Positions 8,101-26,035 are shown, numbered from the stretch's first letter. The stretch: DNA of 32,000 bases from an archaeon (GCA_024275415.1 JAJRZD010000105.1:1-32000); one strand, 5' to 3'. A program made the numbers and translations. Notes: generated by a model not told the origin, from the letters alone.

Positions 8101-11100
8101 TATGCCACAAAAGGTCTTCCAAATGCTGTTCAGCCTCGGGTGAATGCTTTGCATACCGTGCGTTGAATCCACTGCTCCAGAACTCTGTGTAGTTATCTGT
8201 TAGGGTTAGCGAAACAATTGCTCCATCAAGAGAGTTGCCAAACTCGTCAACTAGGTCGATGTCAAAGACGTATGTGAAATTGAGAGCACACTCGTAGTAA
8301 TCCTCAACATCTATTGAAAGGGTCGTTCTAATTGGATCGACTCTGATGGCAAGGATGTTGCTCATGGCTGCTTCATATATCTCAGAGCGTTGGACGATTG
8401 CGAAGATGCGGTAGGTCTCATAATGGGGAGGTGCAGACCATGTTATTTGTCCCATCCCGTGCCCATCCACAACGACAGAACCCAATGTTTCAAGGTTCAG
8501 ACCCACTCTGCGTACCAGATGAACGGTTATAGGTTCCAATAAAAGCTCGTTTTCAGTCGCATTCAAGTCAACTACATAAATATCTATAATGATGTCCTCA
8601 AAGGCATATACCGAACTCGGGGCTGTGATTTGTACATCTAGAAGCCGCCAACTGACAACAAAGAATGCAGGGGCGGAAGCAGATTCGTCATAATACTGAC
8701 TGCCCCTATAGATGCATTCTATGATATACATCCCATAGTTGGGGGCTGACCATACAAAGGTACTATTCACTCCTGTCAATACGGTGATATGATCCTCAAA
8801 GACATCGTTTCCGCCTGCACTCCTTATCAGAATCTCAACATACTCGCCAAGTAACAGGAATCCGTATTCATCCCATAGACGTATAGAAACGTTGACGTTG
8901 GTCGCGTCACCTCTCCACGATGCTTCGACCTGAATCGATGTGTCGATTAGTTGGTAGGATGTCACTTGGACTTCGCTGATACCTGTTTCATGAACATCAT
9001 TTCGGAAGGACAATGCGAATATAGTCAAGTCCTGGATTGGAATGACGGGCGCTTGCCAAACAAAAGACGCAGTGCCACTGCTATCAGTGACCGCAGTGCC
9101 AATCGCGGTGAATATGCCCCATGCAAGGAATTCACTAGCCAGAGTTTCATTGATGCTGCCGGTCATATTCCAAATTGGCATGAATACAGACTGGTTCTCA
9201 AGGACATAGCAATAGAGTACCGTGACATCTGCCATAGGCAACCCTGTGAGATTGTCAGTCACAGTGGAGGTAAGTGTGTATGAGATTTCAGACGGAGATA
9301 CATATGGGTGAATCACATCGGGTAGAGGATCTAATGTCACTATAGTGGAACGCCTGATTATCGTGATGACTGACGTAGAAGAACTTGGCTCATAGGTTTC
9401 CTGACCCAAGAACACACAAGTGATTACGATGTCACCGTTTGTATCGGGATGGAGCAGAATGGAATTATTGTACTCGGTCAGAAAGGTGTAGGAAGATGTG
9501 GCACCATTCCATGTGATATTGACGAGGACTTCAAGGTCGGCAACGGGAACACCGTGAATATCAACTACTTGGAATTCAATGAGGATGTCTTCACCAGCCA
9601 CAGCTTGGTTCGATTCGGGTGTTGAGGATATGTGGGTGAATGTCTTCAAACCATTCACGGTAAATCCTTGCGAAATCTGGCTGGACGCATAGACCTCAGA
9701 GCCTGCATATGACAAGTTCATTGTATAGTTCCCCCAAGTATCTAAGGTCACCACAAATGAACCATTAACTTCCGTAACAATGACAAAGGAGTCATAGTAA
9801 CCAGAAGTGCCACTGAGCTGAACAAGAACCTCGGCTGAAACTGTGTTCATAAAGACATCATACAGGTGAATGTTAACTGTAATGGATTCACCTGCTGAAA
9901 TCAATGTTGGCGAGAGGAATGGTGTGTTGAAGGAAGTACTGATTGTCGGAATGCTAACCGGTACCAAACCGACTCCGTTCAGGTAGCTGATAGTCTGGTT
10001 TGTTTCTACTTGAAACTGTATGTCCTTTCCAGCAATCTGTAGCCAGTCATCGTAACTCGGATCCCATGTCAGATAAGCAAGCCCAAATCCATCCGTGGTG
10101 GAGATCCCAATGACATAGTTCTGGTCATCAAGGGTGTAGCTGAAAGTAACCTCTAGACCTTCTATCGGATATCCTGATGCCCAAGCATCAGTCAGTTCAG
10201 CTGCCAAGACGATTGGGAGTCCGGGGGTGATCCCGTCGTCAATATCAAGAGTTAGATTGACCGGTCGCTGACCTTCCACAGACACAGTGAGACTGCTATT
10301 GGCAATATCGAGATAATAACCGCTTGGGACATAATCAAAGAGGAGTGTATATTCTCCAGCTTCAGTAAGATTGTACTTAAACAGGGCATATACACCGTCT
10401 TCGTGCAGCGTTTGATAGATTGCTATGGTGGTGTTGACATTAGGTCCAGTTATTGTTACCTCGACCAATTGGCCTATCATAGTATCGTCTAGGCCATACG
10501 AGTCCAACATCGTAACCTGCACCGTGAGCTGCCGTTGATCATACACAGTGGGGACATAGTGAACGATTACAGCATCAGCAGGGTCAAAGAGCCAGGATGG
10601 CTCCTCGAACAGTGTGAATCCTGCGAGGTTTGACGAAGGCGCCTTGGTGACATCGTAAAGGGGATAGTCCATGTTCAAGATGACTATGTAGAGATCAACT
10701 GGTCCCGCAACGAGATTAGAAGACAAACCGATGGAGAAGTATATCGTCACTTGTCCAGAGTTCGCTATAGTTGCTGTCGAAAGGAGAAGATTCTCGTTCC
10801 CTTGCACCGCATGAAGTTCTATCTCGAATGGCAGACCAGGTGGGACAATACCTTGGCTATCAGAAAGCGAGAGTGTGACTGAATGAGTCACTCCAAGAAC
10901 GATATCATAATCAACAGGCGTTTCCAGTGTCCATACTAAATCCGCCTTGCCTACGGAAACTATCACACTACGCTCAATGAGAGAAACAGAAGTAGAAGTC
11001 ACTACAGGGAACCTTAATGCATGTGCTGAAGTGTCCCAAATCACATTGGGGTCATCGACGAAGGAAATCGTGTCAGAGCCATCGACGTAAGAAATGTCTT

Positions 11101-13150: not shown

Positions 13151-13209
13151 TTAGTTCCTCTCCATCAGGTTACTATGTGTACTTGTTGCAAGTTGAACAA
13201 TGCTGGATG

Positions 13210-15165
13210 TCACTCCCTATCGCGACCTCCGGAATCGGATATGGGAGAACCAGCAAGCACAGAAGTTGGTGCTGTTCTTGTGGTTCTGCTTCTTAGAACA
13301 AGTAGAACTACAATGGCCAGCGAGCCAGATATGCCACCCATCACGAGAATAACCAAGAGAAGATCACCTTCTGGAGTTGGTTGTGATGTGTCAGTCAGGG
13401 TAGGGGGTGGCGTAGTATTGCTTGTGGAAGTGCTTGGGTCGTATACTACATACTGATAGTACAACCCGGAATCCATGAACTCTTGCGAGTTTCCAACTGA
13501 ATCATTTGCGAGGATATAGTACTGCACAGTGGTACCATTTGATTGAGCAGGAATGTCACCACTGTAGTTCCCATTTTGTCCTTTTTGCATGATGATGATA
13601 TTCCAGCTCGTTCCAGAATCAACAGAATAGTTCAAGAGTACTGTATCAACAACTCCAATGTCATCAGTGATGTTCGCTATGACTGTGACATCGTCCTCAG
13701 AGGTCGGAGCCTGAGGGAGCTGCTCTATGGAGTGACAGACTGGGGCTGAACCATCGACCCTCGCTTCTTCGCGTTGACTGTCAACATAGACTCCAAGGGC
13801 ATCGCCCACAGAAACATAATACTCGATGACACCTTCGGTAAATGGACCAATCTCGGCAGCGAAGGTAACTTGGGAAATGAACAGTGAGGTCGTGTTCTGC
13901 ATTGTCACGTTAGACCAGATTCCCGAGTCCTGTCGGAAGTATAGAATGGCATCCCAGATGTGAAAAGTGCCTCTGGAGGCATTCGCTTGGATGAGCAGAG
14001 GGTCTGTTGGGCCATACAAACCAGATAGTTTTGCGATAGATGCAGTCGCTCTCTCAAAATGATGGTAGATAGTACGGTTCTCGGCACCGACCACTATCCG
14101 ATTGCCGTCTTCGGATATTCCCACTTGCCAGATCGTCCCATCCATGTCGATACGTAATCTGGTTCGATTGTTATCCTTCCTGAACAGATACGCAGATGCA
14201 TCATAACCACCGGCCAAGATGATAGAACCATTGCTCACCATATCGATCTCGGTGATTTGGTTTGTACCATTGAATGTCCATAATGTGTCATTTGAAGAGA
14301 ATTCAAACAGGTAGAGATTCGCTCTGGAAACAGCTGAGGATGTCCCAACTGCTATTGTCGAGCCATCCGCTGATATCTCTGCAGTGATGAAATCATTTCC
14401 AGTATACTCCCAGATCGTCGAATTGCTCGTCCTCTCGAAAGTGTAAATCCTTTCAGATGAAACACCGACAATTCTAGAACCATCCCTATTAATGCCTAGG
14501 CCGTTAACCCATCCTCCCATATCATAGGTCCACAGTGTGTTGTTGGAGTTTCGATCGAATGCGTAGAGTGTATTGTTCCTTCCACCAGAAACGATTGTGT
14601 TCCCATCATATGATATCGCAACACGCCACATCGGCTCTGGGGACTTGTATTTCCAAAGCGTATTGTTAGAACGATAGTCAAACAGGTAGGTCCATCCGCT
14701 CCAGTCTACAGCGGCGATTGTAGACCCATCGCCAGAGATAGCAATGTCAACAATCCAACCGGACGCATTGTAACTCCAGAGGGAGTAATTGCTGTCCTCC
14801 CCCATAAGATACACGAATCCACTTCCTAGTGCAGTCCCAACTGCTGTCAGTGACCCATTTTCGCAAGTAGAGAGTGAGAAGATATTCTCAGATGCATTGA
14901 AGGTCCATAGTGATATATTAGAGGAAGGGTCAAGTCGATGAAGTAGGTTATCTGACACGACAAAAACAGTACTTCCATCGTCAGATATTGTTGCCTTTGT
15001 CCATGATTCGTTTGTAGTGAAGTTCCAAGTCGTGGGCACGGTGTCATCTGAAAGAACTGATTGCATACCAGATGCAATTACACCTTCAGAGAATGCAGGA
15101 GAAATTACCGGGAGCGCTCCAAGTCCAAATAGGACAACACATAGGAATACCATGAACTCTCTCAA
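13210..15165 (-). CDS. Secreted, C-terminally anchored WD40/PQQ-like beta-propeller protein with two Ig-like domains
   Basis: Signal peptide; about 8 repeats of ~40 aa (xNxTLWxY...hxhSxDGSxhhxG...YLF); beta-rich domains; S/T/P linker; TM LLLVILVMGGISGSLAIVVLLVL followed by RSR. Start may be TTG 15165 or ATG 15153. Confidence 0.88.
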   Translation of the reverse strand: MREFMVFLCVVLFGLGALPVISPAFSEGVIASGMQSVLSDDTVPTTWNFTTNESWTKATISDDGSTVFVVSDNLLHRLDPSSNISLWTFNASENIFSLSTCENGSLTAVGTALGSGFVYLMGEDSNYSLWSYNASGWIVDIAISGDGSTIAAVDWSGWTYLFDYRSNNTLWKYKSPEPMWRVAISYDGNTIVSGGRNNTLYAFDRNSNNTLWTYDMGGWVNGLGINRDGSRIVGVSSERIYTFERTSNSTIWEYTGNDFITAEISADGSTIAVGTSSAVSRANLYLFEFSSNDTLWTFNGTNQITEIDMVSNGSIILAGGYDASAYLFRKDNNRTRLRIDMDGTIWQVGISEDGNRIVVGAENRTIYHHFERATASIAKLSGLYGPTDPLLIQANASRGTFHIWDAILYFRQDSGIWSNVTMQNTTSLFISQVTFAAEIGPFTEGVIEYYVSVGDALGVYVDSQREEARVDGSAPVCHSIEQLPQAPTSEDDVTVIANITDDIGVVDTVLLNYSVDSGTSWNIIIMQKGQNGNYSGDIPAQSNGTTVQYYILANDSVGNSQEFMDSGLYYQYVVYDPSTSTSNTTPPPTLTDTSQPTPEGDLLLVILVMGGISGSLAIVVLLVLRSRTTRTAPTSVLAGSPISDSGGRDRE

Positions 15166-15453: not shown

Positions 15454-15849
15454 TTGTCAGACAGCAATACGTTCAGAGTGACGTGTCCCTACTGCGGGCA
15501 GACAAACGAGTACTATACATGGGACAAGCGAGACGATGGCCTCCTGCACTGCTCGACCTGTGGAAGCCTTATCGACACAGCACATGCAAGCACGAGGACT
15601 CCTCAAGCATCACCGCCTCTGCCTCCACGAGATGCCACATTCACGGATGGATATGCTCCTGCCCCGCACAGTGCACCTCCTCCCTCCACCGCAAAATCGA
15701 ATCAATGGCTTCTGTGTTGTGCGATCCTGTCCATCCTATTTCTTCCAATAGTAATAGGGATACCTTTGGGACTCGTTCTAGGAATTATGTGGTATCGACG
15801 GAAGAACAGAGTGGGAGCAGGAAGACCCAAACCTTCTCGGGCATGGTAA
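15454..15849 (+). CDS. Zinc-ribbon protein with Pro-rich linker and C-terminal membrane segment
   Basis: CPYC...CSTC zinc ribbon, Pro/Ala-rich linker, WLLCCAILSILFLPIVIGIPLGLVLGIMWY hydrophobic segment and RRK stop-transfer. TTG start with GAGG upstream. Confidence 0.8.
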   Translation: MSDSNTFRVTCPYCGQTNEYYTWDKRDDGLLHCSTCGSLIDTAHASTRTPQASPPLPPRDATFTDGYAPAPHSAPPPSTAKSNQWLLCCAILSILFLPIVIGIPLGLVLGIMWYRRKNRVGAGRPKPSRAW

Positions 15850-15939: not shown

Positions 15940-17007
15940 ATGCAATCCTTAGAATTAGTACCTTCACTTCTCATATCGATGCTCGTGACATTCATTGCCC
16001 TGGCCGTTGTGATAAACTCGTGGAGGCAAAGAAGGTTACTTCCAACACTTCTATACGTCTTGACGATTGGTTGTTTCTCTGCAATGGTAATCGACCTCCT
16101 GCTCGATCAAATCTATATGCCATTTCGCAACTGGGGACTCGTTGTCAACGGTCATCAGTTGTGGGTATCGAATCTGCTTCTCACGCTCTTCATAGTCGGC
16201 GGTTTCATCTCCTGGTATTTTGCGATAATGTACTCGCAGTATGATACACCTCCGACCAAGCTGTCAATCCTAGTCGCATTCCTATCAGGAGGTGCCCTCG
16301 TTGGAGAACTGGTGAAAGGAAATTGGTCTAACTACCTGCCGTTGGTTATCGAGGTTGTTGCCTTTGCGATACTGATTGCGGTCATTGTTCAATATTATCG
16401 AAGGATTATCAGGACGACAACAGACAGGTCAGCTCGCCGAGTGGTCAGTTTCTACTTCCTTGGCTTTGTGATATGGATCAGTGCGGGCCCAATTGGACTG
16501 ATAATTGCAAGTTTGTCAGGGATTCCGTGGTGGGTGGGTAATCTCTGGACCGTCCCGTATACCCTCGGATTACTACTTGTTTCAATCACGGTTGCACAAA
16601 ATCCTAGATTGTTGTTCATAAGCGAGGCACGACCTCTTGACTTTATAGTGTTGGATAGTCAGGGGGTTCTTGTATTTAGTCACAGATTCCATGACTACCC
16701 TGGCAGTATGGACTCCGAGCTCGTTGGTTCTGCAATATCAGGTATCATCTCGCTAATGAAAGAACTCCTTGCAAGTGGCGAGTCTCTACAACGTATCGAC
16801 CATGGCGATGTGAAAATTCTTCTCGAGCATGGAGCGGATATTACCTGCCTACTTGTTGTTACAATAGCAACCTCAAGGTTTAGACAATCGCTACAGGCAG
16901 CATTGGTCGAATTTGAAACCACTTATAGGAAGCACTTGCACTCTGAGCATTCACTTAGCACGGGCTTCTTACCATTCAAGGCTCGGGCGGAAGAGATTTT
17001 CCTTTAG
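15940..17007 (+). CDS. Seven-transmembrane protein fused to a C-terminal longin-like domain
   Basis: Seven hydrophobic helices in aa 1-220. The soluble domain FIVLDSQGVLVFSH...DSELVGSAISGIISLMKE...IDHGDVKILLEHG...LLVV...FRQSLQAALVEFETTY follows the beta-beta-alpha-beta-beta-beta-alpha longin pattern typical of Asgard proteins. Confidence 0.8.
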   Translation: MQSLELVPSLLISMLVTFIALAVVINSWRQRRLLPTLLYVLTIGCFSAMVIDLLLDQIYMPFRNWGLVVNGHQLWVSNLLLTLFIVGGFISWYFAIMYSQYDTPPTKLSILVAFLSGGALVGELVKGNWSNYLPLVIEVVAFAILIAVIVQYYRRIIRTTTDRSARRVVSFYFLGFVIWISAGPIGLIIASLSGIPWWVGNLWTVPYTLGLLLVSITVAQNPRLLFISEARPLDFIVLDSQGVLVFSHRFHDYPGSMDSELVGSAISGIISLMKELLASGESLQRIDHGDVKILLEHGADITCLLVVTIATSRFRQSLQAALVEFETTYRKHLHSEHSLSTGFLPFKARAEEIFL

Positions 17008-17034
17008 GTGGTCATGACACATCCCCATTCTTGC

Positions 17035-17634
17035 TCATCCATCTGGCTGTCTGAATGTGACGATAACCAGCATCAGCACGAACAGAAGAGAGCCAAAGAC
17101 GGTGAACCACTCTGTAAGGGAACCACTTATGGTGAACGCGAACACTATTGTAGAGAGATCAAATATGATGGTGTATAGTCCCACAACACGAGGAAACGTG
17201 TTGTGAAGCAAAAGTCCTATCCCTGCTAAGAAAAGAACAAAAAAGTTCAGCATGAAGAAGGTCATAGATGCTATCATATGAGGTGAGCCCTGATCCTCTG
17301 AAAAGACGCCTATCATGATCAGTGCAATTGCGGATGCGATACCTAATATCTGAGCGTGGGACAGTATTACCCGTTGCAGCCCACTCTCAACGTGCCATGT
17401 CAGCAAGCTGATGAAAAACAGCACCAGAGCAATCCCAGTTAGAATGCAGCCAAAATTGTAGAATATCGCCCCTGATGGATTGTAGTCATAGTTTCCTAGG
17501 CGGCTGAGATAATGTGTAAGAGGTCCATACGGGGCAGGATACAGAGCCCACGAAAGAAGTGTAAGAAGACAATAAGTCGATATCACAAAGGCTCCGGATG
17601 CCACAAGTATTGATTGCATCTTGCTTTTGGGCAT
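17035..17634 (-). CDS. DUF998-like multi-pass membrane protein
   Basis: YP.Y...HYLSRLG...GAIFYNFGCILTG and IGVFSED...HMIAS...FF patterns; about 6 TM helices. ATG 17634 follows AGGGAG and avoids overlap with the divergent gene. Confidence 0.7.
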   Translation of the reverse strand: MPKSKMQSILVASGAFVISTYCLLTLLSWALYPAPYGPLTHYLSRLGNYDYNPSGAIFYNFGCILTGIALVLFFISLLTWHVESGLQRVILSHAQILGIASAIALIMIGVFSEDQGSPHMIASMTFFMLNFFVLFLAGIGLLLHNTFPRVVGLYTIIFDLSTIVFAFTISGSLTEWFTVFGSLLFVLMLVIVTFRQPDG

Positions 17635-17778
17635 ACTCCCTTTATTCGTTCGAGTCGCTCTTAAATCATTAGTGTGCACTGTATGACATCACCTTTCGAT
17701 ATTGATGAAATGTCACACCACAATCCATTTCTCAGTCCGAGCTGCGATGTTGCCAGAGCTGAGAAGATGCTCATTCGA

Positions 17779-18819
17779 ATGGAATTAGTGGTAGAATTGA
17801 CAGATAGAACAACACGCGTCCTATTCATATGGAAAGTCCGAGATGAGCTGAGAGAGTATCTGGCCGAGAACCTAGAGTCACTTCCTGCTGTCGACCTTAT
17901 ATTCCCAGAACAAGCCAGCGAAGAAGAGTATCTCAAGTATGCTCCTGAAGCTGATTTAATCGTTGGGTGGCGTCCCTCGGAAGAACTCCTGCAAAGAGCT
18001 GCGAATCTAAGGCTCTTCATCAATCCTGGTGCCGGAGTCCAGCATCTCATTGAACAATTTCGTGGTATCAACAGAAAACAAGAAGTGATACTTGTAAATG
18101 GACATGGGAATGCTTATTTCACAGCCCAGCATACGGTGGCCCTGTTGCTGGCACTAACGAACAAGGTGATTCCTCATCATAATTGGATGGTGGAAGGTAG
18201 GTGGCGACGAGGAGATGACTATGCTAAGACGATCCCACTCAGATGGCGAAAGATAGGACTTCTTGGATATGGCGCCGTCAATCGCAATGTCCATAGATTC
18301 CTCTCTGGCTTCGACAACGAGTTCCACATCCTCAGGACTGGTTGGCCAACAGAAGATGAATATCCCACAGAGATTGAGCAATATACGTCAGGCGAACTTC
18401 ATGATTTCCTTCAGTGTATTGATACACTCATCATTGCAGTGCCTCTTACCAAGAGAACCGAGGGACTGATTGGGACGAATGAGCTCACACTACTGGGTAG
18501 TCAAGGACTACTGGTCAACATGTCGCGTGGAACAGTGGTCGATGAGAAGGCACTCTTTCTGGCATTGAAGGACAAGCGGATCGCTGGTGCTGCAATTGAT
18601 GTATGGTATGAGTATAGTCCTGAGCCAGATGTCGATGCTAGGCGGTATCCGTACCACTATCCGTTCCATGAGCTTGAGAATGTTGTGCTATCGCCACATC
18701 GAGGAGCATCACCAATGGATGACCTGCACAGATGGAATGAAGTAATTGAGAATATCAAGCGTTTCGCCAATGGACGGACAGATTATCTGAACCGAGTGGA
18801 CATCCAGAGAGAGTATTAA
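17779..18819 (+). CDS. D-isomer-specific 2-hydroxyacid dehydrogenase (NAD-binding; substrate unknown)
   Basis: KIGLLGYGAV Rossmann motif, AVPLT..TEGLI, LVNMSRG (catalytic Arg), AAIDVW and SPHRG (catalytic His). Start uncertain (ATG 17779 or TTG 17797). Confidence 0.9.
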   Translation: MELVVELTDRTTRVLFIWKVRDELREYLAENLESLPAVDLIFPEQASEEEYLKYAPEADLIVGWRPSEELLQRAANLRLFINPGAGVQHLIEQFRGINRKQEVILVNGHGNAYFTAQHTVALLLALTNKVIPHHNWMVEGRWRRGDDYAKTIPLRWRKIGLLGYGAVNRNVHRFLSGFDNEFHILRTGWPTEDEYPTEIEQYTSGELHDFLQCIDTLIIAVPLTKRTEGLIGTNELTLLGSQGLLVNMSRGTVVDEKALFLALKDKRIAGAAIDVWYEYSPEPDVDARRYPYHYPFHELENVVLSPHRGASPMDDLHRWNEVIENIKRFANGRTDYLNRVDIQREY

Positions 18820-19123
18820 CTAGGGCTGACATTAGGTTTCATAGTATATCGATGTGAAAGAGTCGTGAACAGCTGCGAGAGAACTGAACCTCTCGTGGTA
18901 GGTGATTATATCCGACTGGACAGTACTATGTCGCAAGGTCGAACGACAAGCGACGCTGACCACACAGAGTCGTTCCCGGTGTCGTCCCTGGGAGGACAAT
19001 GCTCTGGTGTCCAGACTTGTCCAGATTACACTGAACGGCAATGGACTCGGACAGGATATCATTCAGGTCAAATACGAACATGGCTGGCACTATTACTGTG
19101 ATGGCATATTAGAATGTCCCTTG

Positions 19124-19163
19124 AAAACAAAATCAGGAAGACCCCGAACGAATCGGGGCTTCC
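19124..19163 (-). terminator. Hairpin plus U-rich terminator-like element
   Basis: GGAAG-a-CCCCGA-acgaa-TCGGGG-CTTCC stem at 19136-19163, followed on the minus strand by tgattttgtttt; lies 13 nt past the TGA at 19176-19178. Confidence 0.65.
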
Positions 19164-19175
19164 TCTTGGCAGAGT

Positions 19176-19351
19176 TCAACCTGCTCCCTGTTTCTTTTTG
19201 AGTAGGACGACTATTACGACCACTACCGCGACAGCAGCTGTACCACCGATGATGAGCAGGAGTGGCCCAACGTCAAAGGGCTCGGGAGGCGTCGTTTCAG
19301 GGACGTACGCTAGCACGCTTACTATTGAACTTGTCCAAGCGTGTCACCTCC
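19176..19351 (-). pseudogene. Remnant of a C-terminally anchored surface-protein gene (or a 46-aa micro-membrane protein)
   Basis: Minus frame encodes YVPETTPPEPFDVGPLLLIIGGTAAVAVVVVIVVLLKKKQGAG* (linker, TM, KKK). Upstream GGAGGTGA (19351-19344) precedes TTG 19338, which opens MDKFNSKRASVRP* in a different frame. Confidence 0.6.
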
Positions 19352-19632
19352 GCAAGGAGAAGCCTAGATTGAGCCCTGGTATGCGGACATGCCTCAGTCA
19401 GCTAGGTCATGGCAACATTGTGATGACGGCCCACAGGTTATCCGCAGGATCTGCACTGCACTTTTGTCCTGTTACATGATATATGCCCCTTTGCGTTCCT
19501 ACCTTCTCAAGGTCGAAGGTGATATCCCACGACCTTTTGCCATGATGCCAATCCTGACTAACAGATCTGATGACCGGAGTGGGAAGTTTTTACTTTCTGC
19601 CGCCAACGATATAGTGGATGAGAACTGATCCG

Positions 19633-20385
19633 TCATGTGTCACATTCGAAGAGAAGAACCGTGTAATGTCCCAGCCTACTCATACGCTCGATTGGATATC
19701 TTCTGTCGAATTCGATTGAATCTGAAGTATGCGAATTGAAGTCTATTCCCCATATGAAGTTAAACCCGTGCGATTCGAGAAATGCAATGTTATCCACAGG
19801 ATAAAGCATGCAAGGCTGGGTGACTATAAGTAGACCATCACCATGCATTGTTTCGCGAAATCCCTTCATACTCGCTTCCGAGTTTGTGTATTCTTTGTAG
19901 TAACTATGGATATAGCCGATGACATCATTGTTCAGGATACCGATGTCAAAGCACCCTTTAGGTATCTTGTTGTATCTGAGCACCTGCTCATCAACAGAAT
20001 TTAATTTCTCCAAGCAATTCATGTATTCAATCTGGGTCTCAGGAAAGTGAGCTTCGCTAATCATCTTTTCAAACTTGGAAACGACTATCCTCGTGTTTTT
20101 TATCAATCCCATCTCTTTCAGTTTACTGTAAAGGCTCTCTATCCTAAGAGTATGAAGATCTATGCAATAGACTGTGGATGAGAATCTTATCTCCCGTGCA
20201 TCCAGTGCTCTTGGTAATTCATGATGCATAAAGAGAGGAATCTCCTCATTCTCCCCCGATGCATAGTCTGCAACTAGAATCTCACGTTGTCCGTTAGATT
20301 CTACTAGATTCCCCACCGTTTCAAGAAATCTCTCGCTGCTGTTCAGTATTGCAATCGGAAGCCCTACCATGATGATCCACTTCAT
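19633..20385 (-). CDS. Divergent class I SAM-dependent methyltransferase-fold protein
   Basis: ILVADYASG (motif I-like), VYCIDL (motif II), FDIGILN and DGLLIV strands in the class I order. Starts 8 nt after the GTPase stop; alternative ATG at 20370. Confidence 0.6.
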   Translation of the reverse strand: MKWIIMVGLPIAILNSSERFLETVGNLVESNGQREILVADYASGENEEIPLFMHHELPRALDAREIRFSSTVYCIDLHTLRIESLYSKLKEMGLIKNTRIVVSKFEKMISEAHFPETQIEYMNCLEKLNSVDEQVLRYNKIPKGCFDIGILNNDVIGYIHSYYKEYTNSEASMKGFRETMHGDGLLIVTQPCMLYPVDNIAFLESHGFNFIWGIDFNSHTSDSIEFDRRYPIERMSRLGHYTVLLFECDT

Positions 20386-20393
20386 CAGGTATC

Positions 20394-20891
20394 TTATTCA
20401 CAGGTCACGATTCGTGTGATTTCTTGTGAGAGACGGTCAAAGTTCAACCCTGTCTTTGCACTCACGATGACATAGGGAACTCCCAGCTCTTGAGCCTTTA
20501 TCTTTACATCTTCTTCTGTGATAGACGCTACGTCCGCCTTGTTCCCCACAAGAAGCCACTTCTCCCGTGGGATGTGTTGGACGATATGCATCCACTCGTC
20601 CACCGCAGCCACGGTCGTGAATCGGGACATGTCTATCAGAATGAGAACACACTCCGCGCCTATGATGAAGGCATCTTGAAAGCTCCTGAATTGCTTCTGT
20701 CCCCCTAAATCGAACGCTGCAATCTTTATCTGACCAGACGAATCTAAGTCGCTGATAGTCCATGTGGTAATGTCCAGTCCAATAGTCATGGCTGTTTCTT
20801 GAAATGCACCATTGGCCAGACGATATGCGGTGGCAGTCTTTCCAACACCGCCAGCTCCAACTAATACGATTTTCATTACACTGCTGGCCAT
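20394..20891 (-). CDS. Ras-superfamily small GTPase (Asgard Rab/Arf-like)
   Basis: G1 GAGGVGKT, G2 TIG, G3 DLGGQ, G4 NKAD, G5 SAK; 165 aa; AGGAG upstream of the ATG. Confidence 0.95.
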   Translation of the reverse strand: MASSVMKIVLVGAGGVGKTATAYRLANGAFQETAMTIGLDITTWTISDLDSSGQIKIAAFDLGGQKQFRSFQDAFIIGAECVLILIDMSRFTTVAAVDEWMHIVQHIPREKWLLVGNKADVASITEEDVKIKAQELGVPYVIVSAKTGLNFDRLSQEITRIVTCE

Positions 20892-21058
20892 CTTGTCTTG
20901 CTCCTAGCCTGTCCTTTTTTTTAAAAAAATATACTTTAAGCTATTTCTGATGGTTTAAGGCACATTAAATAGTATGCGTAATATATTGACTGCATCCGTA
21001 AAAGACGGGTTCATATAGGTTAGATGATAAGTCGAGAGAAAGCAAGTGGTGACTCGCC
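20892..21058. promoter_or_regulatory. Divergent promoter between the GTPase and ferredoxin genes
   Basis: AT-rich region with a T8A7 quasi-palindrome at 20915-20929, TATA-like TTTAAG and ATTAAATA, and GGTGA at 21048-21052. Confidence 0.45.
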
Positions 21059-21241
21059 ATCCCGACCATCTTAGATGAGAACTGTTGCTCAGGCTGTGGA
21101 AAATGCGTCAAGGAATGCAGATATGGGGTCTACGAGAAGATTGATGAAACCCCTCAGGTCGTCAATGTCCAGTACTGCAAGAATTGCGGTGAATGCATCA
21201 AGGTCTGTCCAAATGGCTGCATAGCTTTCAGGAAAATCTAG
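21059..21241 (+). CDS. 2x[4Fe-4S] ferredoxin, 60 aa, lacking a canonical start codon (ATC at the expected start)
   Basis: (I)PTILDENCCSGCGKCVKECRYGVYEKIDETPQVVNVQYCKNCGECIKVCPNGCIAFRKI* has two CxxCxxCxxxC motifs. In-frame TGA at 21050 and no ATG/GTG/TTG before the first cysteines. Absent from the ORF track. Confidence 0.85.
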   Translation: MPTILDENCCSGCGKCVKECRYGVYEKIDETPQVVNVQYCKNCGECIKVCPNGCIAFRKI

Positions 21242-21354
21242 TCCCTGTAGACGCATTCGCCAGTCCTCATAATCATACTACCACTAACACAGCATGTGAT
21301 ACATTTGAAAGCACTCTCTACACACGATTCATCTCTACAAAATCTCTAAAACAT

Positions 21355-21390
21355 CCTTTTTTCCGAACAAGTTACCAAAAAAAAGGGGGG
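21355..21390. terminator. Possible bidirectional T-tract terminator
   Basis: CCTTTTTT (21355-21362) and its complement AAAAAAGG (21379-21386) within A8G6, between the ferredoxin and the next promoter. Confidence 0.35.
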
Positions 21391-21463
21391 ATAAAATCAC
21401 TATATTCTTTATATTGTCGATAGAAAAGATTAGCATATATTTAAGCATGTTATCTTTTATACC

Positions 21464-23749
21464 ATGCTTGAACGAAGAGGAGAGTCAGCAATCGCATTGA
21501 ACCACACTCGTCATATAGCACTTAGCCTTATATCTTTATTATCAGGGCTTGTCGTCTTTTTGCTAAGTTCGCCTCCATGGGACACTCCCGGTGCTGCCAC
21601 AGTCTATTATTCGATTCTGGCATTTCTTAGCATCACTGTGACTGTCTGTGGAAGGGCTCGGATTCGGACGGATCCGTCTCCAGCACACACACTCTTTGTG
21701 GGAGGGACACAATTCGCCTCGGTCATCTTTGGAGGGGCTGCCCTCTTTTATCTCTTCAATAGGGATGCCCCAGTGACCCATCTATATACATCAGGCATCT
21801 TTCTGAACTTGGTCGCATTTGCCATCACTGGAGTCACAATGTTTCTGTACGCCTATTTCCAAAATCACCCTCCATCTGAAAAGTCATTCCTGTATAATCG
21901 CTATCTATTACATCTCTTCGTGATCTTCACTGTAGGTCTATTCGTGGTTCTACTCATAGTTTCACGGATCTTTCTGACTGCATCATTCTTCCTGCTTTGG
22001 GGGTACGTGACAGGTGCCATCGCAGTGACAACGTACATGAGTGCTGCATATCTCCTTCTTAAGCCAAGGACTAGGATCGCAGACACTCATGAACCTATGC
22101 GACTTGCCCTCACATTCATCCTTTTGGGAGCAGCTAGCACCATTCATATAACACTGCTTCCAGCGCCCAATAGTCTTTGGACATTATCTATCCTGTTGAC
22201 GATTGTAGCATTTATCTATGCGATAGTTTCCACAGGTTACCAATACCTATTCGATATCTCGGTAGATGAAAAGATAGCATATGCCATCGCAGTATCGATC
22301 AGTGCGATAGTCATAGGCCCATTCTTGATACTCCAGCTGATTGAAGGTTACATCTTTATGGGAACGGTGGTTGAGATTGGAGCCCCGTTGCTCATCCATA
22401 TTGGAGGCACTATCTTTGCCGGATCCATTGCTTTCTCTCTTTTCAGGAAGACGCGACACAGAAATGTCACATTCTTTGCCCCACTAATATCAATTCTCAT
22501 ATTCTGGACTATGGCTTAATTCGCCCTTGTTCTTTCCCATGTGCTCCCATTATATGGATCTCCTTCGGAGTCGCGTGTGCCGTATATTGCAGGGAGCGTG
22601 GTCATGATAGTATTTCTTATCGAGATCATACGAGCTATTCTTAGACCTGAAAGCAGGATAAATGGTCATTACAGCTTCCAGAAATATGCATCCCACATTG
22701 TTATCTTTGCCATAATGATAGGCCTTGGTGAAGTCGTTCAGGCATATCTCTTCACCACAAATCCTACTGTATTCGATGGCACTTTCGGGACAGCACTCAT
22801 GTTGGGGTTGAGCTATATCTCATTGTTCCTTCTCCTTGACTTTTTCTTACTTCTTGCAAGTATGCTAGGAGGCAAGACCGATATGGAAACCCTTGCATGT
22901 GGTTCATTGACAATCTGGTTGGTCATCATCATCATGAAAGCAAACTTTGGAGTCTGGACGGTAGGGTACTGGGTGGCTGAGGGAGTTCTTGCAGCTTCAG
23001 TTGCAGTCTTTCCAATCATCCTACTCTTTTACTATATCTCTGAGAACGAGCGCGCAACACTCATGGAATCTAACATGGCAATTTACTCACGATTTGTGAC
23101 TGAACAGATACGATCACACCATCATGAGGCGATCAATAGTCTTGAAACGATGGTTCAAGAATCCGGTTTTGACGATAAACGACTTGACTCTATCTCCAAG
23201 ACACTACAAGAGGTTTCACTTGCCGAAGAGCTCACACGGAATATGTGTAGCGTATTGGAGAATGGCAGATTCGCAGAGGAGGCATTGGAACCACTAGATC
23301 TAGTAGATGCTATCATCATCGCAATGGAGCGATTGATACAGGATAAAGAATCACTGCCTCAAATAAAGATCAATCGTGAGAGAGGGGCTTGCTACGTCAT
23401 TGCGAATTCTCTTCTTATTGACACATTTGAGAAACTGCTTGAAGGAGTCAGTAGACATATTGGAATCATCAGGACGCTGGACATCTCCATCTCACAGGAA
23501 GCCTCCGATGTCCAACCATCTTGGCATACCACATTCACCATCGAGGCTGTCACACAGGACGTAAGGAAATCTGAGTTCCTGTTTGAGAAATACACGCTGG
23601 GTGCCTGGGAAACAATACCCAGCTTTGCATTTACATATCGTCTTGTCAAGCTGTTCAATGGAAAAATATCAATCAGGAGCATCGTTGGTGCGTCCACCCA
23701 GCTATGGTTGGAGATAAAGGTACGCCTACCTTCAACCCCCTCTATCTGA
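21464..23749 (+). pseudogene. Large polytopic membrane sensor with degenerate histidine-kinase-like C-terminus, interrupted by one in-frame TAA (22517-22519)
   Basis: ORFs 21464..22519 and 22541..23749 share a frame, and the junction WTMA*FALVLSHV reads as one TM helix. The C-terminus keeps HisKA/HATPase spacing (LEPLDLVDAI, CYVIANSLLIDTFEKLL, LFEKY, RLVKLFNGKISI...VRLP) without the canonical H, N or G boxes. Confidence 0.75.
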
Positions 23750-23794
23750 ATGACCTATTGGCAATACGGGTTGTGCGACAAGAACGTATGACTT

Positions 23795-24613
23795 CTATGC
23801 CTTAGCTACAGCAATGGCCCTAAAGGTGGTGTCGCTCACAGGGTTGAATGTGAGGTTCTCGAAAGTACCCATGACCTCAAAGCTACAGCGTTCAAGGATT
23901 GATGATATCTCTCGTGGAGTGAACGTGCGAAGTCGGTGTTCTTCCACAAACTCATCAACCAGTTCCTTACCTGAAATCACATAGCCGTGAAAGGTCAATG
24001 CAAGGACGTTGGTATCTGTTTCGAACTTGCCCTCGTCCAGCCGGATAACAGTGATGCCGTCTTTCTCGGCCTTGTGCCAAGAGCTTTTCCTACCTGTGAC
24101 TCCCCTGGTGTTCCAGAATTCGAAGATGAACAAACCGCCGGACACGAGATGTTTCTTGATTCGCCCAAGGCTATTCTCTATGTCCCTGTCAGACTCGTTG
24201 TACCCGATCGAGCCAAAGAAACTGACAGCGGCATCGAAGGTTTCACCCATATCAAAGTCCCTCATGTCCGCAACGTAAAATGATGGCACCCCCTGCACTC
24301 CTGATGACACTTTTGTCCGGGCCAGTCTGACCTGCTCCTCAGAGATATCGATTCCTACAACGTCATAGCCTTGGGCATGAAACTCAATCGCATGGCTTCC
24401 CGTTCCACATCCAATATCAAGGATCCGTCTAGGTTGGGTTTTGGAAAACCGTTCAAATATGCTCTTGACATACTCGCAATCGCTTTTGTGGTCATAGAAC
24501 GAGTACATCACATCATACCATTTTGCCATCTTGTTGTAAATCGACATGGCACATGGTTCTAGCAAGAGGCTTTTATCCTTTCCATTGTTTTCTCCAGATG
24601 ATTTATCAGTCAC
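23795..24613 (-). CDS. Class I SAM-dependent methyltransferase (Methyltransf_25-like)
   Basis: YD..Y, ILDIGCGTGSH, VVGIDISEEQV, ADMRDF, FDAAV and LVSGGLFIFE motifs. Start may be ATG 24547. Confidence 0.92.
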   Translation of the reverse strand: MTDKSSGENNGKDKSLLLEPCAMSIYNKMAKWYDVMYSFYDHKSDCEYVKSIFERFSKTQPRRILDIGCGTGSHAIEFHAQGYDVVGIDISEEQVRLARTKVSSGVQGVPSFYVADMRDFDMGETFDAAVSFFGSIGYNESDRDIENSLGRIKKHLVSGGLFIFEFWNTRGVTGRKSSWHKAEKDGITVIRLDEGKFETDTNVLALTFHGYVISGKELVDEFVEEHRLRTFTPREISSILERCSFEVMGTFENLTFNPVSDTTFRAIAVAKA

Positions 24614-24669
24614 TAGTCTTTTCGTGGATGCAGCCGCGCTTGTGAAGAGAAACTCGAGGACCGACGTAG

Positions 24670-25227
24670 ATGTCTAACACAGTCAAGGCTTGGCAATTCA
24701 AAATAGTTCTAATTGGTGATACTGGAGTCGGAAAGACCTCTATTCACCGTCAGTACATGGGCAAGAAATTCAGGTCTGCTCATATAGCGACAATCGGGGT
24801 CGATTTCTCAAAGTGCGTCCTCACCATGGAGGCTGGGAAGGTTTCACTTATGATCTGGGATCTCGCAGGAGAATACAGCTATGAAACCGTCCGGAGGCAT
24901 TATTACTCTGGCTGCCATTCGATCATCCTAGTATATTCTGTAGTGGATCGTGCGTCCTTCGACAACACCTCGAAGTGGCTCATCGAGACCCTCAAGTACA
25001 TGGACAAGCTCCCCCCCGTGCTGGTTCTAGCAAACAAGATTGACATTAGACCAGATCACAGCCCTTCAGATACCGTGTTACAAGAAGAAGGTGAGCGGTT
25101 TGCCAGAGTGCTAGCAAAGCGCCTTGATGTCCCTACGCTCTTCAAAGAAACCTCTGCACTTACCGGGGAGAATGTCGATGATGCATTCAGGGAGCTAGCT
25201 GAGCTGATGATAGAATATCACACTTGA
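24670..25227 (+). CDS. Rab-like small GTPase
   Basis: G1 GDTGVGKT, TIGVDF, G3 WDLAGE, HYYSG, G4 NKID, G5 ETSAL. Confidence 0.95.
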   Translation: MSNTVKAWQFKIVLIGDTGVGKTSIHRQYMGKKFRSAHIATIGVDFSKCVLTMEAGKVSLMIWDLAGEYSYETVRRHYYSGCHSIILVYSVVDRASFDNTSKWLIETLKYMDKLPPVLVLANKIDIRPDHSPSDTVLQEEGERFARVLAKRLDVPTLFKETSALTGENVDDAFRELAELMIEYHT

Positions 25228-25240
25228 CCTGTAGGGCGGG

Positions 25241-26035
25241 CTAGTCCTCTCCCATCATTGGCAAAGAGAACCTCGAACTGAAGATACCATTCTCCCGACA
25301 TGCCTTGATGCACTTGCCACAGACATCCTTCACAAGCCCTTTCGATTTTAAGAATAGGATATAGCGCCTGCAATTCTCCCTGTAGTCAGTGAGTTTCTCT
25401 CGGTTTTTGATGAATGTACATGCGTCCTCGCACGCGGTACAAGAACCGCACCTTGATCCGACAGGTGTCCCATATTCAAGAGAGACTGGAATAATGACGG
25501 ACGCGAATCGCACGGCACAGCTGAACTTCTCGTGGATGATTAACTGGTTCTTTCCTCTCCATCCTAGCCCCGCCTGCTCCGCAATTGCCCGATGTGATAC
25601 TACCATGCCGAAGTAGTCTGACACATGACTCACCTCACCGATAATCCCCCCGATGGTCGCTGTCAGGGCAATCCCGTTGAAATGGTCTGCGATGGTACGG
25701 GACATCTAATTCAGTACTTGGTTTATCCTGTGGTACTCCAACGCGTATTCATTCCACACAACATAGTCCGGCATGCCGTCCTCTCTCTTGTCAATGACGG
25801 ACGTAATAGGGTCTCTGTATGAAACCGCTATGCTCACTAGCGATCCCCTTGTCATGAACTCGTCAAAGCGTTTTCCTGATATTGTCTGCAACTTTTCCTT
25901 TTGGATAGGCATCAATGAATGAAACACATCGCGAAATCGAGAGGCCCCAATATCTCCTTCTTCATTGTATTCCTGTTTTAATTCGTCAAAGAGAGCAGCG
26001 AGTTCCCGCATATGGCGCTCTGTAGAGTCTTGCAT
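25241..26035 (-). pseudogene. Epoxyqueuosine reductase (QueG) / reductive dehalogenase-like 2x[4Fe-4S] protein split by an in-frame TAG (25708-25706)
   Basis: ORFs 26035..25706 and 25705..25241 are in frame (YHRINQVLN*MSRTIADHF). HRAIAEQAGLGWRGKN.L, VRFASVI, CGSCTACEDAC and CGKCIKAC match the QueG-like family. It may instead be a functional two-part gene. Confidence 0.75.

Follow-up and report, generated by a model that had tools for sequence, protein, structure and literature searches.

The window analysed here is a 32,000-nucleotide stretch of a Thorarchaeota genome that carries 44 Ras-like GTPases at a density of one per 80 kb. Within it, 9.3 kb (positions 15,940 to 25,227) had been proposed in an earlier note to encode a candidate circuit leading from a membrane receptor to small GTPases. 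The genes of this stretch and the gene just upstream are the following:

15454..15849, plus strand: 131-aa protein with a Zn ribbon and a transmembrane (TM) part, upstream of the 7TM-longin gene
15940..17007, plus strand: P0001, a 7TM bundle (residues 6-220) with a C-terminal longin-fold domain (229-355) (AF2, VIA-align)
17035..17679, minus strand: 214-aa polytopic membrane protein, between the 7TM-longin gene and the dehydrogenase
17674..18819, plus strand: D-2-hydroxyacid dehydrogenase (Pfam 2-Hacid_dh_C, E 3.3e-36)
19633..20385, minus strand: P0003, 250 aa, class I SAM-methyltransferase fold, 9 bp downstream of P0004 (AF2, Foldseek)
20394..20891, minus strand: P0004, small GTPase (Pfam Ras, PF00071, E 1.4e-25)
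21464..22519, plus strand: N-terminal 351 codons of the sensor (TM region), in the same frame as 22541-23749 and matching residues 4-350 of a ~750-aa family
22517..22519, plus strand: in-frame TAA in the sensor gene, read directly
22541..23749, plus strand: C-terminal 402 codons of the sensor, with the last TM helices and a degenerate DHp/CA (pseudo-histidine-kinase) module
23795..24613, minus strand: 272-aa SAM-dependent methyltransferase, divergent from P0005 (Pfam Methyltransf_25, E 2.1e-17)
24670..25227, plus strand: P0005, Rab-like GTPase (Pfam Ras, PF00071, E 5.4e-40)

We compared these genes with those of about 90 related genomes, and presence counts are given for 87 Thorarchaeia genomes.

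The 7TM-longin gene and its neighbours

The AF2 model of P0001 (355 aa, pLDDT 81.6) places seven TM helices within residues 6-220, followed at residues 229-355 by a domain of beta-beta-alpha-beta-beta-beta-alpha topology (by DSSP, strands at 232-239, 244-249, 285-287, 292-297 and 301-307 and helices at 259-276 and 312-328). VIA-align superposes this domain on the longin domain of VAMP7 with a Z of 14.2 and an rmsd of 2.0 A over 110 residues, and on the longins of Fuzzy, Sec22b and zeta/delta-COP with Z 13.1-13.4; longins are a better structural match than Roadblock structures. The likeness extends over the eukaryotic longin GEF platforms (Mon1-Ccz1, TRAPP, Fuzzy-Inturned/CPLANE) and longin SNAREs (VAMP7, Sec22b), with Z 13-14 and rmsd 2.0-2.8 A over 110-120 residues, but identity to these domains is 10-17 %, Pfam longin models stay below threshold, and in P0001 a 7TM bundle is joined to the domain, a combination that our literature search did not find. 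As modelled, the C-terminal domain has a true longin fold, and the description of P0001 as a 7TM-longin protein is borne out.

Sequence comparisons give only faint signals for this domain. In Pfam the match of P0001 to Fuz_longin_1 (E 0.16, 12.6 bits) falls under the gathering cut-off of 26.1, and among 19 family members there are sub-threshold matches only, to Fuz_longin_1 in 4 (best E 0.002) and to Robl_LC7 in 5 (best E 0.01). A profile of the longin domain run against PDB sequences returned chance-level matches only (E of at least 0.27). Foldseek with the whole P0001 model gave no match with E below 0.008, and the fold assignment is based on VIA-align, not on this whole-model search. An ESM Atlas feature search with the longin domain returned scores below 0.9 only; one cluster, named Roadblock/LAMTOR2 and with Fuz_longin_1 on 22 % of its members, is a lead only.

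The 7TM bundle aligns with MRGPRD (Z 14.8, 3.9 A) and bacteriorhodopsin (Z 13.6), in a range where helical bundles reach Z ~13-14 by arrangement alone. No 7TM Pfam family matches P0001 above its cut-off, TM7S3_TM198 (E 0.01) being below its own. A rhodopsin reading of the bundle was rejected, TM7 having no Lys.

The 7TM-longin family is single-copy and present in 25 of the 87 Thorarchaeia genomes. In 12 of 24 other genomes (and in 4 of 5 lineages with long flanks) the next gene downstream, on the same strand, is the dehydrogenase; only about 3-60 bp separate the two open frames in relatives, where the two genes are probably co-transcribed. In the window the 214-aa membrane protein stands between them. 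It belongs to a real family found in 78 of 87 genomes, at other places in those genomes, and comparison with relatives indicates that this unrelated gene was inserted here. The true start of the dehydrogenase is probably near 17780. Upstream, the Zn-ribbon protein has an orthologue at the same position with 67 % identity at loci L006 and L007 and 46 % at L103. Judged by gene order, the 2-hydroxyacid dehydrogenase is the only conserved genomic partner of the 7TM-longin family.

No such conservation connects the family to GTPases. The GTPase nearest to P0001 is 3.4 kb away, a distance within which a random gene of this genome has a GTPase with P = 0.09 by permutation. Ras-like ORFs are missing around 29 other loci of the family, for which the flanks covered were +-10 kb in 5 genomes and +-1.5 kb in 24. 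Two genomes of the same genus, G017 and G018, have no 7TM-longin gene; both keep orthologues of P0003 and P0005, and G018 keeps those of P0004 and the sensor as well. The 'proto-GPCR/GEF' link between the 7TM-longin protein and the GTPases of the stretch thus has no comparative support, and the conserved neighbour is the dehydrogenase.

An interrupted sensor and two GTPase-methyltransferase pairs

The sensor is encoded by two ORFs that make up one frame of ~754 codons split by the TAA. The stop aligns with a conserved Glu of relatives (GAG in the G018 orthologue), and only 5 of about 140 sensor-family matches have an internal stop of any kind; the TAA may be a consensus error of the MAG, and a search for public sequencing runs covering 21900-23100 listed none. 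Stop-codon recoding was rejected as an explanation of the break, the codon being TAA and not TGA or TAG.

Residues 1-528 of the sensor contain about 15 TM-like segments, and the part encoded at 22541-23749 corresponds by homology to residues ~350-751 in a family of ~750-aa membrane histidine kinases. phmmer connects the sensor along its full length with ~750-aa proteins; the more remote of these have HATPase_c and HisKA, and the family consensus has all four kinase boxes. This homology indicates that the sensor shares descent with bona fide histidine kinases. It resembles the canonical ~750-aa Thorarchaeia histidine kinases (for example the paralogues on contigs C56 and C63) in length, TM region and DHp/CA scaffold, but its subfamily reads EQIRS in place of HDIxN and FEKLLEG in place of FxNLxxN and has no DxGxG, no GxGLGL and no HATPase_c match. 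Neither PF02518 nor PF00512 matches the sensor, and PF02518 matches nothing on the contig, though two paralogues elsewhere in the genome do match it. The loss of the H-box His, the N-box Asn and the G1 and G2 boxes is common to the whole subfamily, which keeps shared motifs such as RYT.G and EFAYA.RL. From the lost boxes the sensor is predicted to be incapable of phosphorelay. Having neither the phospho-acceptor His nor the ATP-binding boxes, the subfamily would therefore have to act non-catalytically, as sensor or scaffold. The large membrane sensor with a dead kinase domain described earlier is thus found, though in a gene broken into two ORFs.

None of the 21 receiver domains of the genome is on this contig (C89), in agreement with the earlier statement that the window has no response regulator, and the sensor has no cognate receiver there with which to form a two-component system. 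The absence is uninformative because canonical sensor paralogues also lack an adjacent response regulator: only 1 of 11 canonical-kinase paralogue loci has an adjacent receiver.

The two GTPases had been called intact and of different flavour. Both are Ras-family proteins and they fall in separate clades of the tree. P0004 has the Ras-superfamily motifs (G1 GAGGVGKT, G3 DLGGQ, G4 NKAD, G5 SAK) including the catalytic Gln. In P0005, G1, G4 and G5 are intact, but G3 reads DLAGE, so that Glu replaces the catalytic Gln and the word intact does not hold for it; it has no C-terminal Cys. Its closest orthologues have DLAGQ, the codon being GAA in the window and CAA in G018. The P0005 clade (24-25 rows, SH-aLRT 97) includes only about 4 of the 44 GTPases of the host genome.

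Each GTPase lies beside a methyltransferase-like gene. The AF2 model of P0003 (pLDDT 90) matches PDB methyltransferases in Foldseek with E 3.5e-10. A GTPase adjoins a P0003 family member in only 2 of 30 genomes, the host genome and G018; in the latter the P0004 orthologue (64 %) and the P0003 orthologue are 5 kb from the sensor. The divergent pair of methyltransferase and P0005 GTPase is kept in the same-genus genomes G018 and G017.

GTPases beside the sensor in related genomes

Across 29 sensor-orthologue loci with 379 kb of flanking sequence, we counted 4 GTPases, compared with 4.7 expected at the density of the host genome (1 per 80 kb), and 25 of the 29 are free of GTPases within 8.8 kb. 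Of the four GTPases, three (in G015, G009 and G007) belong to the P0005 clade and lie less than 600 bp from a co-oriented sensor, and the metagenome locus L130 repeats the G007 arrangement. The gap between stop-to-stop open frames is 257 bp in G015, 143 bp in G009 and about 575 bp in G007 and L130. Locus L008 has two more P0005-clade GTPases 3.2 kb from a sensor orthologue, and all GTPases within 3.2 kb of a sensor orthologue are in this clade. These P0005-clade GTPases beside the sensor are more numerous than expected from random placement, which could reflect function rather than descent alone.

The gene orders of relatives point to an ancestral syntenic block, which would have contained the sensor, possibly a methyltransferase, one or more GTPases, possibly a QueG-like gene, oligoendopeptidase F (pepF), a membrane protein and an S9 peptidase. 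The GTPase follows the sensor in G015 and G009 and precedes it in G007. In G008 and G014 the sensor and pepF are present and a GTPase is missing; in G017 and G016, pepF and the membrane protein occur with the methyltransferase or GTPases, and the sensor is missing. Sensor and GTPase would thus have been lost independently in different lineages. Because of this independent loss within the block, the two genes appear to be at times side by side and not obligate partners. The 7TM-longin gene and the sensor share 18 genomes compared with 8 expected, and as a sign of a link this was rejected, the excess disappearing (17 versus about 15) without two large genera that lack both.

It is conceivable that a Rab-like GTPase of the P0005 clade takes the place of a response regulator as the output of the 15-TM pseudo-histidine kinase, in a pair ancestral to part of the Thorarchaeia and now decaying in the host genome. 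There are precedents: the Streptomyces conservon consists of the sensor kinase CvnA, the Roadblock/MglB-like CvnB, CvnC and the MglA-like GTPase CvnD, has no response regulator, and its GTPase has been proposed as the output (PMC4316618); Rup group 1 GTPases, which have no catalytic Gln, adjoin kinase or GGDEF-type proteins (PMC4316618). The single clade of the sensor-adjoining GTPases agrees with such a pair, as does a kinase domain conserved after the loss of its boxes, which implies a non-catalytic role under selection; the TAA in the sensor and the change of Gln to Glu in P0005 would be the marks of decay. Against it stand the GTPase count at the sensor loci, which does not surpass expectation, the independent losses, the gene order that varies between lineages, and the canonical-kinase paralogues, whose own missing neighbours mean that an absent response regulator does not point to GTPase output. 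We regard this pairing as unlikely. The earlier suggestion that membrane sensors here signal through GTPases rather than phosphorelay accordingly keeps its negative half, since phosphorelay is lost, and a few adjacencies in favour of the other, while most sensor loci do without a GTPase.

Like a conservon, the window itself combines a membrane sensor descended from histidine kinases with a domain of the Roadblock/longin superfamily and a small GTPase, and has no response regulator. However, the conservon is a tight and highly conserved four-gene operon, whereas the genes of the window are spread over both strands with unrelated genes between them and are not conserved together, so that no conservon-type operon is found here. 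The kinase of the window is moreover catalytically dead and interrupted, its GTPases are Rab-like and not MglA-like, and its longin is fused to a 7TM bundle. Asgard systems described by Liu et al. (bioRxiv 10.1101/2020.10.19.343400) include a LAMTOR1-like/Rab-like GTPase/DENN operon and NPRL2-like longin domains fused to two-component domains. They share with the window the general idea of longin/Roadblock domains and GTPases connected to prokaryotic-type sensors, but those cases are conserved operons or physical fusions and the cluster of the window is neither.

The stretch as a whole

How often would such a cluster arise by chance in a GTPase-rich genome? In permutations of the host genome, a random 9.3-kb segment holds at least 2 GTPases with P = 0.018, or about 7 such segments per genome. 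A randomly placed 2.3-kb stretch has a GTPase within 1 kb at each end with P = 0.00045; if the genome has about 3,300 genes, this amounts to roughly 1.5 cases. Adjacency does reveal true partners in this genome: in a positive control, 6 of its 15 bona fide Roadblock genes had a GTPase within 600 bp, compared with 3.8 % expected. Pairs of MglA/MglB type (on contigs C120, C57, C66 and C104) likewise combine a small GTPase with a Roadblock/longin-superfamily regulator, but their members are about 100-600 bp apart, in contrast to the 3.4 kb of the 7TM-longin gene and its GTPase-free loci in other genomes. The co-location is not beyond chance, and the four-gene set is conserved in none of the about 90 related genomes compared. 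The caveat of the earlier note that proximity may be accidental is largely what the data show.

Taken together, these results suggest that the 9.3-kb stretch is probably not one system and is instead a mosaic of independent units, in which chance or common ancestry mostly accounts for the closeness of the four kinds of gene. The first unit would be the Zn-ribbon protein, the 7TM-longin protein and the D-2-hydroxyacid dehydrogenase, in which the longin domain may serve as a cytoplasmic protein-binding platform on a 7TM anchor, not tied to the GTPases of the window. GTPase P0004 followed by the methyltransferase-fold protein P0003 would make a second unit, paired only in the host genome and G018. 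The third, the ~754-aa pseudo-histidine kinase with ~15 TM segments, interrupted by TAA in the window copy, and the fourth, the divergent methyltransferase/P0005 pair, would both derive from the ancestral block.

Alternatively, the 7TM-longin protein may regulate a small GTPase encoded elsewhere, the GTPases of the window being irrelevant to it. The longin fold carries invariant surface motifs in 27 family members (ELxGSAxSG in helix 1, and DHGD), the genome offers 44 Ras-like candidates, and regulation in trans is compatible with the missing synteny. Yet no positive evidence singles out any GTPase partner, the sole conserved genomic partner is the dehydrogenase, and the best structural matches (SNAREs, adaptor sigma, zeta-COP) are longin folds that also serve GTPase-independent binding; we think this quite unlikely. 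That the 7TM-longin protein is a receptor-GEF platform which, with the pseudo-kinase sensor, regulates P0004 and/or P0005 of the same cluster is highly improbable: the longin fold is real, longin and Roadblock domains are known GTPase platforms (PMC3747258) and the genes lie within 9.3 kb on a contig without a response regulator, but the strands differ, unrelated genes (the dehydrogenase, the inserted membrane protein, the methyltransferases) intervene, same-genus genomes with both GTPases have no member of the 7TM-longin family, and the conserved synteny that the earlier note demanded is not there.

An Asgard pathway from a receptor to small GTPases would be relevant to the origin of eukaryotic G-protein signalling and of membrane-traffic regulation. 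Where one GTPase occurs per 80 kb, the closeness of genes is weak evidence for it. We would give little credence to the combined view in which the 7TM-longin family is a receptor whose longin directly regulates a GTPase encoded elsewhere and, separately, the pseudo-histidine kinase and a P0005-clade GTPase form a conservon-like module. If it were true, the 7TM-longin protein would unite receptor and GEF/GAP in one molecule, as a prokaryotic counterpart to GPCR-to-G-protein coupling. Three things are worth keeping: the conserved gene pair of 7TM-longin and 2-hydroxyacid dehydrogenase, a long-lived subfamily of pseudo-histidine kinases with about 15 TM helices, and the few genomes (G015, G009 and G007) in which an intact sensor directly adjoins a Rab-like GTPase and which suit a test of a conservon-like mechanism much better than the interrupted copy of the window.

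Genes of the cluster

The source metagenome-assembled genome, from Thorarchaeota (3.53 Mb, 92.9 % complete, 127 contigs), carries the following genes in the stretch for which a receptor-to-small-GTPase circuit had been proposed. Homologues of the window's proteins likewise bear Thorarchaeota annotations.

Genes of the 15.4-25.3 kb stretch of the window
15454-15849, +, Zn-ribbon/TM protein, 131 aa
15940-17007, +, P0001, 7TM-longin protein, 355 aa
17035-17679, -, membrane protein, 214 aa
17674-18819, +, D-2-hydroxyacid dehydrogenase
19633-20385, -, P0003, methyltransferase-fold protein, 250 aa
20394-20891, -, P0004, GTPase, 9 bp upstream of P0003
21464-22519 and 22541-23749, +, sensor, two ORFs sharing one frame
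23795-24613, -, SAM methyltransferase
24670-25227, +, P0005, GTPase

Upstream of the cluster (2192-15165, -) are the genes of a surface protein of 3652 aa and of a beta-propeller-like protein of 651 aa; giant surface/beta-helix proteins also neighbour 7TM-longin genes in other genomes (L001, L002, L006).

The AF2 model of P0001, with 27 family members as input (pLDDT 81.6, pTM 0.71), shows a bundle of seven TM helices and, C-terminal to it, a domain of beta-beta-alpha-beta-beta-beta-alpha topology. Foldseek matches the full-length model to longin and Roadblock proteins with weak E-values, while VIA-align matches residues 229-355 to the VAMP7 longin (Z 14.2, rmsd 2.0 Å, 110 residues) and to the Fuzzy, Sec22b, COPI and TRAPP longins (Z 12.9-13.4), confirming the 7TM-longin protein described earlier. 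Pfam matches in the family are sub-threshold (Fuz_longin_1 in 4 of 19 members, Robl_LC7 in 5 of 19). With Z 13-15 at rmsd ~4 Å, the likeness of the 7TM bundle to GPCRs and rhodopsins is one of arrangement only; by the tool's own warning, helical bundles attain such values without homology.

The 402-aa sensor ORF aligns to the C-terminal part (residues ~350-751) of proteins about 750 aa long, in 139 representative clusters, and a 351-aa ORF lies upstream in the same frame. The TAA between them (22517-22519), across which the genome search reads one single match, replaces a conserved Glu of the relatives (GAG in the closest orthologue); internal stops of any kind occur in only 5 of about 140 family matches. 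The ~230-aa cytoplasmic module follows about 15 TM-like segments. The family, present in 74 of 87 Thorarchaeia genomes, has a consensus carrying HDIxN, FxNLxxN, DxGxG and GxGLGL, and its distant members match HATPase_c and HisKA. All four motifs are missing from the subfamily of the window, where other motifs are conserved instead; contig C89, which holds the window, has no HATPase_c match, and two same-genome paralogues (C56, C63) retain that domain. Since its members share only 24-49 % identity with the window copy, the subfamily is old; by its motifs it is a conserved pseudo-histidine kinase. The loss of catalytic motifs described in the earlier note is shared by the whole subfamily, and the local gene is itself split.

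Within 3.2 kb of the sensor TAA lies a second interrupted gene, that of a QueG-like Fe-S protein (25241-26035, -): an in-frame TAG (...QVLN*MSRT...) divides it into 109-aa and 154-aa ORFs, and its orthologue in G007 is one uninterrupted frame of about 289 codons (L016:7608-8474). Three of the 30 HATPase_c matches in the source genome also have an internal stop (TGA, TAG, TGA). Together these stops suggest either frequent pseudogenes or assembly consensus errors.

P0004 and P0005 both match Pfam Ras, and P0004 has a complete set of G motifs. The G3 motif of P0005 is DLAGE where its closest orthologues (G018, L008) have DLAGQ, a one-codon change (GAA vs CAA) that removes the catalytic Gln, and the terminal branch of P0005 is ~3x as long as those of its orthologues. 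The same Gln-to-Glu state is seen in the second copy of tandem GTPase pairs (G017, G018, L008). The components of the cluster are real, with the reservation that the sensor is interrupted and that P0005 is not intact at its catalytic residue.

Neighbourhoods in other genomes

Flanks of the sensor orthologues hold 4 Ras-like ORFs against 4.7 expected (29 loci, 379 kb of flank), and of six further metagenome loci only one has any. Three of the four are co-oriented and within 600 bp (G015, G009, G007); L130 repeats the G007 arrangement, and L008 has two GTPases 3.2 kb from the sensor. All GTPases at these five loci belong to the P0005 clade (SH-aLRT 97), which comprises only about 4 of the 44 GTPases of the source genome; the fourth is a P0004 orthologue 5 kb away in G018. 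This bias is a non-random signal, a weak association of pseudo-kinase sensor and P0005-clade GTPases confined to some lineages, and it makes a pair resembling a Streptomyces conservon the main, though unlikely, rival reading. Much of it is explained by descent, because the genes downstream of P0005 (oligoendopeptidase F, a 247-aa membrane protein and an S9 peptidase) also flank sensor orthologues (G008, G014, G009, L131). Sensor and oligoendopeptidase F occur without a GTPase in G008 and G014, and the methyltransferase or GTPases occur with oligoendopeptidase F and the membrane protein but without the sensor in G017 and G016; sensor and GTPase therefore belong to one ancestral block and were lost independently, which counts against such a pair.

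Other recurrent neighbours of the sensor, seen in several metagenomic and MAG contigs, are Peptidase_C13 (legumain/caspase-like), WGR-domain and acetyltransferase-SCP2 genes (L008, L009, L010). One locus (G003:C5:146321-150916, L037) holds a tandem pair of full-length pseudo-kinase sensors.

The proposed roles of P0004 and of the 7TM-longin protein find no support in synteny. The fold of P0003 is that of a class I methyltransferase (model pLDDT 90; Foldseek E 3.5e-10), and 43 of 87 genomes carry the gene as a single copy; of 30 loci only those of the window and of G018 have an adjoining GTPase. The 7TM-longin family is found in only 25 of 87 genomes, and no Ras-like ORF lies within ±10 kb of seven loci in five other genomes or within ±1.5 kb in 24 further genomes. 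Its partner is a 2-hydroxyacid dehydrogenase, directly 3' and co-oriented in 12 of these 24 genomes and in 4 of the 5 long-flank lineages, the called genes being 21-52 bp apart. In the window the two are separated by an insertion, the 214-aa membrane gene; its conserved polytopic family occurs in 78 of 87 genomes but is sited elsewhere in the others. The same-genus genomes G017 and G018 lack the 7TM-longin family though they keep P0003, methyltransferase and P0005 orthologues, and G018 also retains P0004 and the sensor. That the 7TM-longin protein acts in trans is an unlikely reading, somewhat more so than the conservon-like pair.

Proximity, chance and known systems

The source genome has 39 Pfam Ras matches and 44 Ras-like ORFs by jackhmmer, one per 80 kb. 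Under the permutation null suggested earlier, a gene as long as P0001 has a GTPase within 3.4 kb with P = 0.09, and a 9.3-kb stretch holds at least two with P = 0.018, or about 7 such stretches per genome. GTPases within 1 kb on both sides of a random 2.3-kb stretch have P = 0.00045, about 1.5 cases per genome if roughly 3,300 genes are assumed. As a positive control, 6 of the genome's 15 Roadblock genes have a GTPase no more than 600 bp away (3.8 % expected), so genuine regulator/GTPase pairs are detectable by adjacency here; P0001 is unlike them.

As the earlier note stated, the window encodes no response regulator; the genome has 21 receiver domains, all of them on contigs other than C89. 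This absence is uninformative because receivers are generally not adjacent to pseudo-kinase loci (1 of 29 within 3 kb) or canonical-kinase paralogue loci (1 of 11). A kinase- and receiver-rich contig of the source genome (G000) carries a Ras-like GTPase ORF (32680-33204, +) and, 34 bp away, an ORF for a receiver domain (33238-33573, -; G000:C97:32680-33573).

Among described systems the Streptomyces conservon comes closest: it combines a sensor kinase with a Roadblock protein, with CvnC and with an MglA-like GTPase, the proposed output, and has no response regulator; Rup group 1 GTPases lack the catalytic Gln and adjoin kinase or GGDEF-type proteins (PMC4316618). The cluster has the same cast of components but not the defining operon or conservation of the conservon. 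For Asgard archaea, published work describes a conserved LAMTOR1-like/Rab-like/DENN operon as well as fusions of longin domains with two-component domains (bioRxiv 10.1101/2020.10.19.343400), and a sensor/longin/GTPase link is as a general idea already in the literature.

Taken together, we consider that the 15.4-25.3 kb stretch is probably a mosaic of independent units. As candidate GTPase-regulator modules, the genes of the window rank below the Roadblock genes found directly beside small GTPases (MglA/MglB-like) on C120 (9038-10540), C57 (21525-22568), C66 (5158-6948) and C104 (18564-19488) of the source genome.
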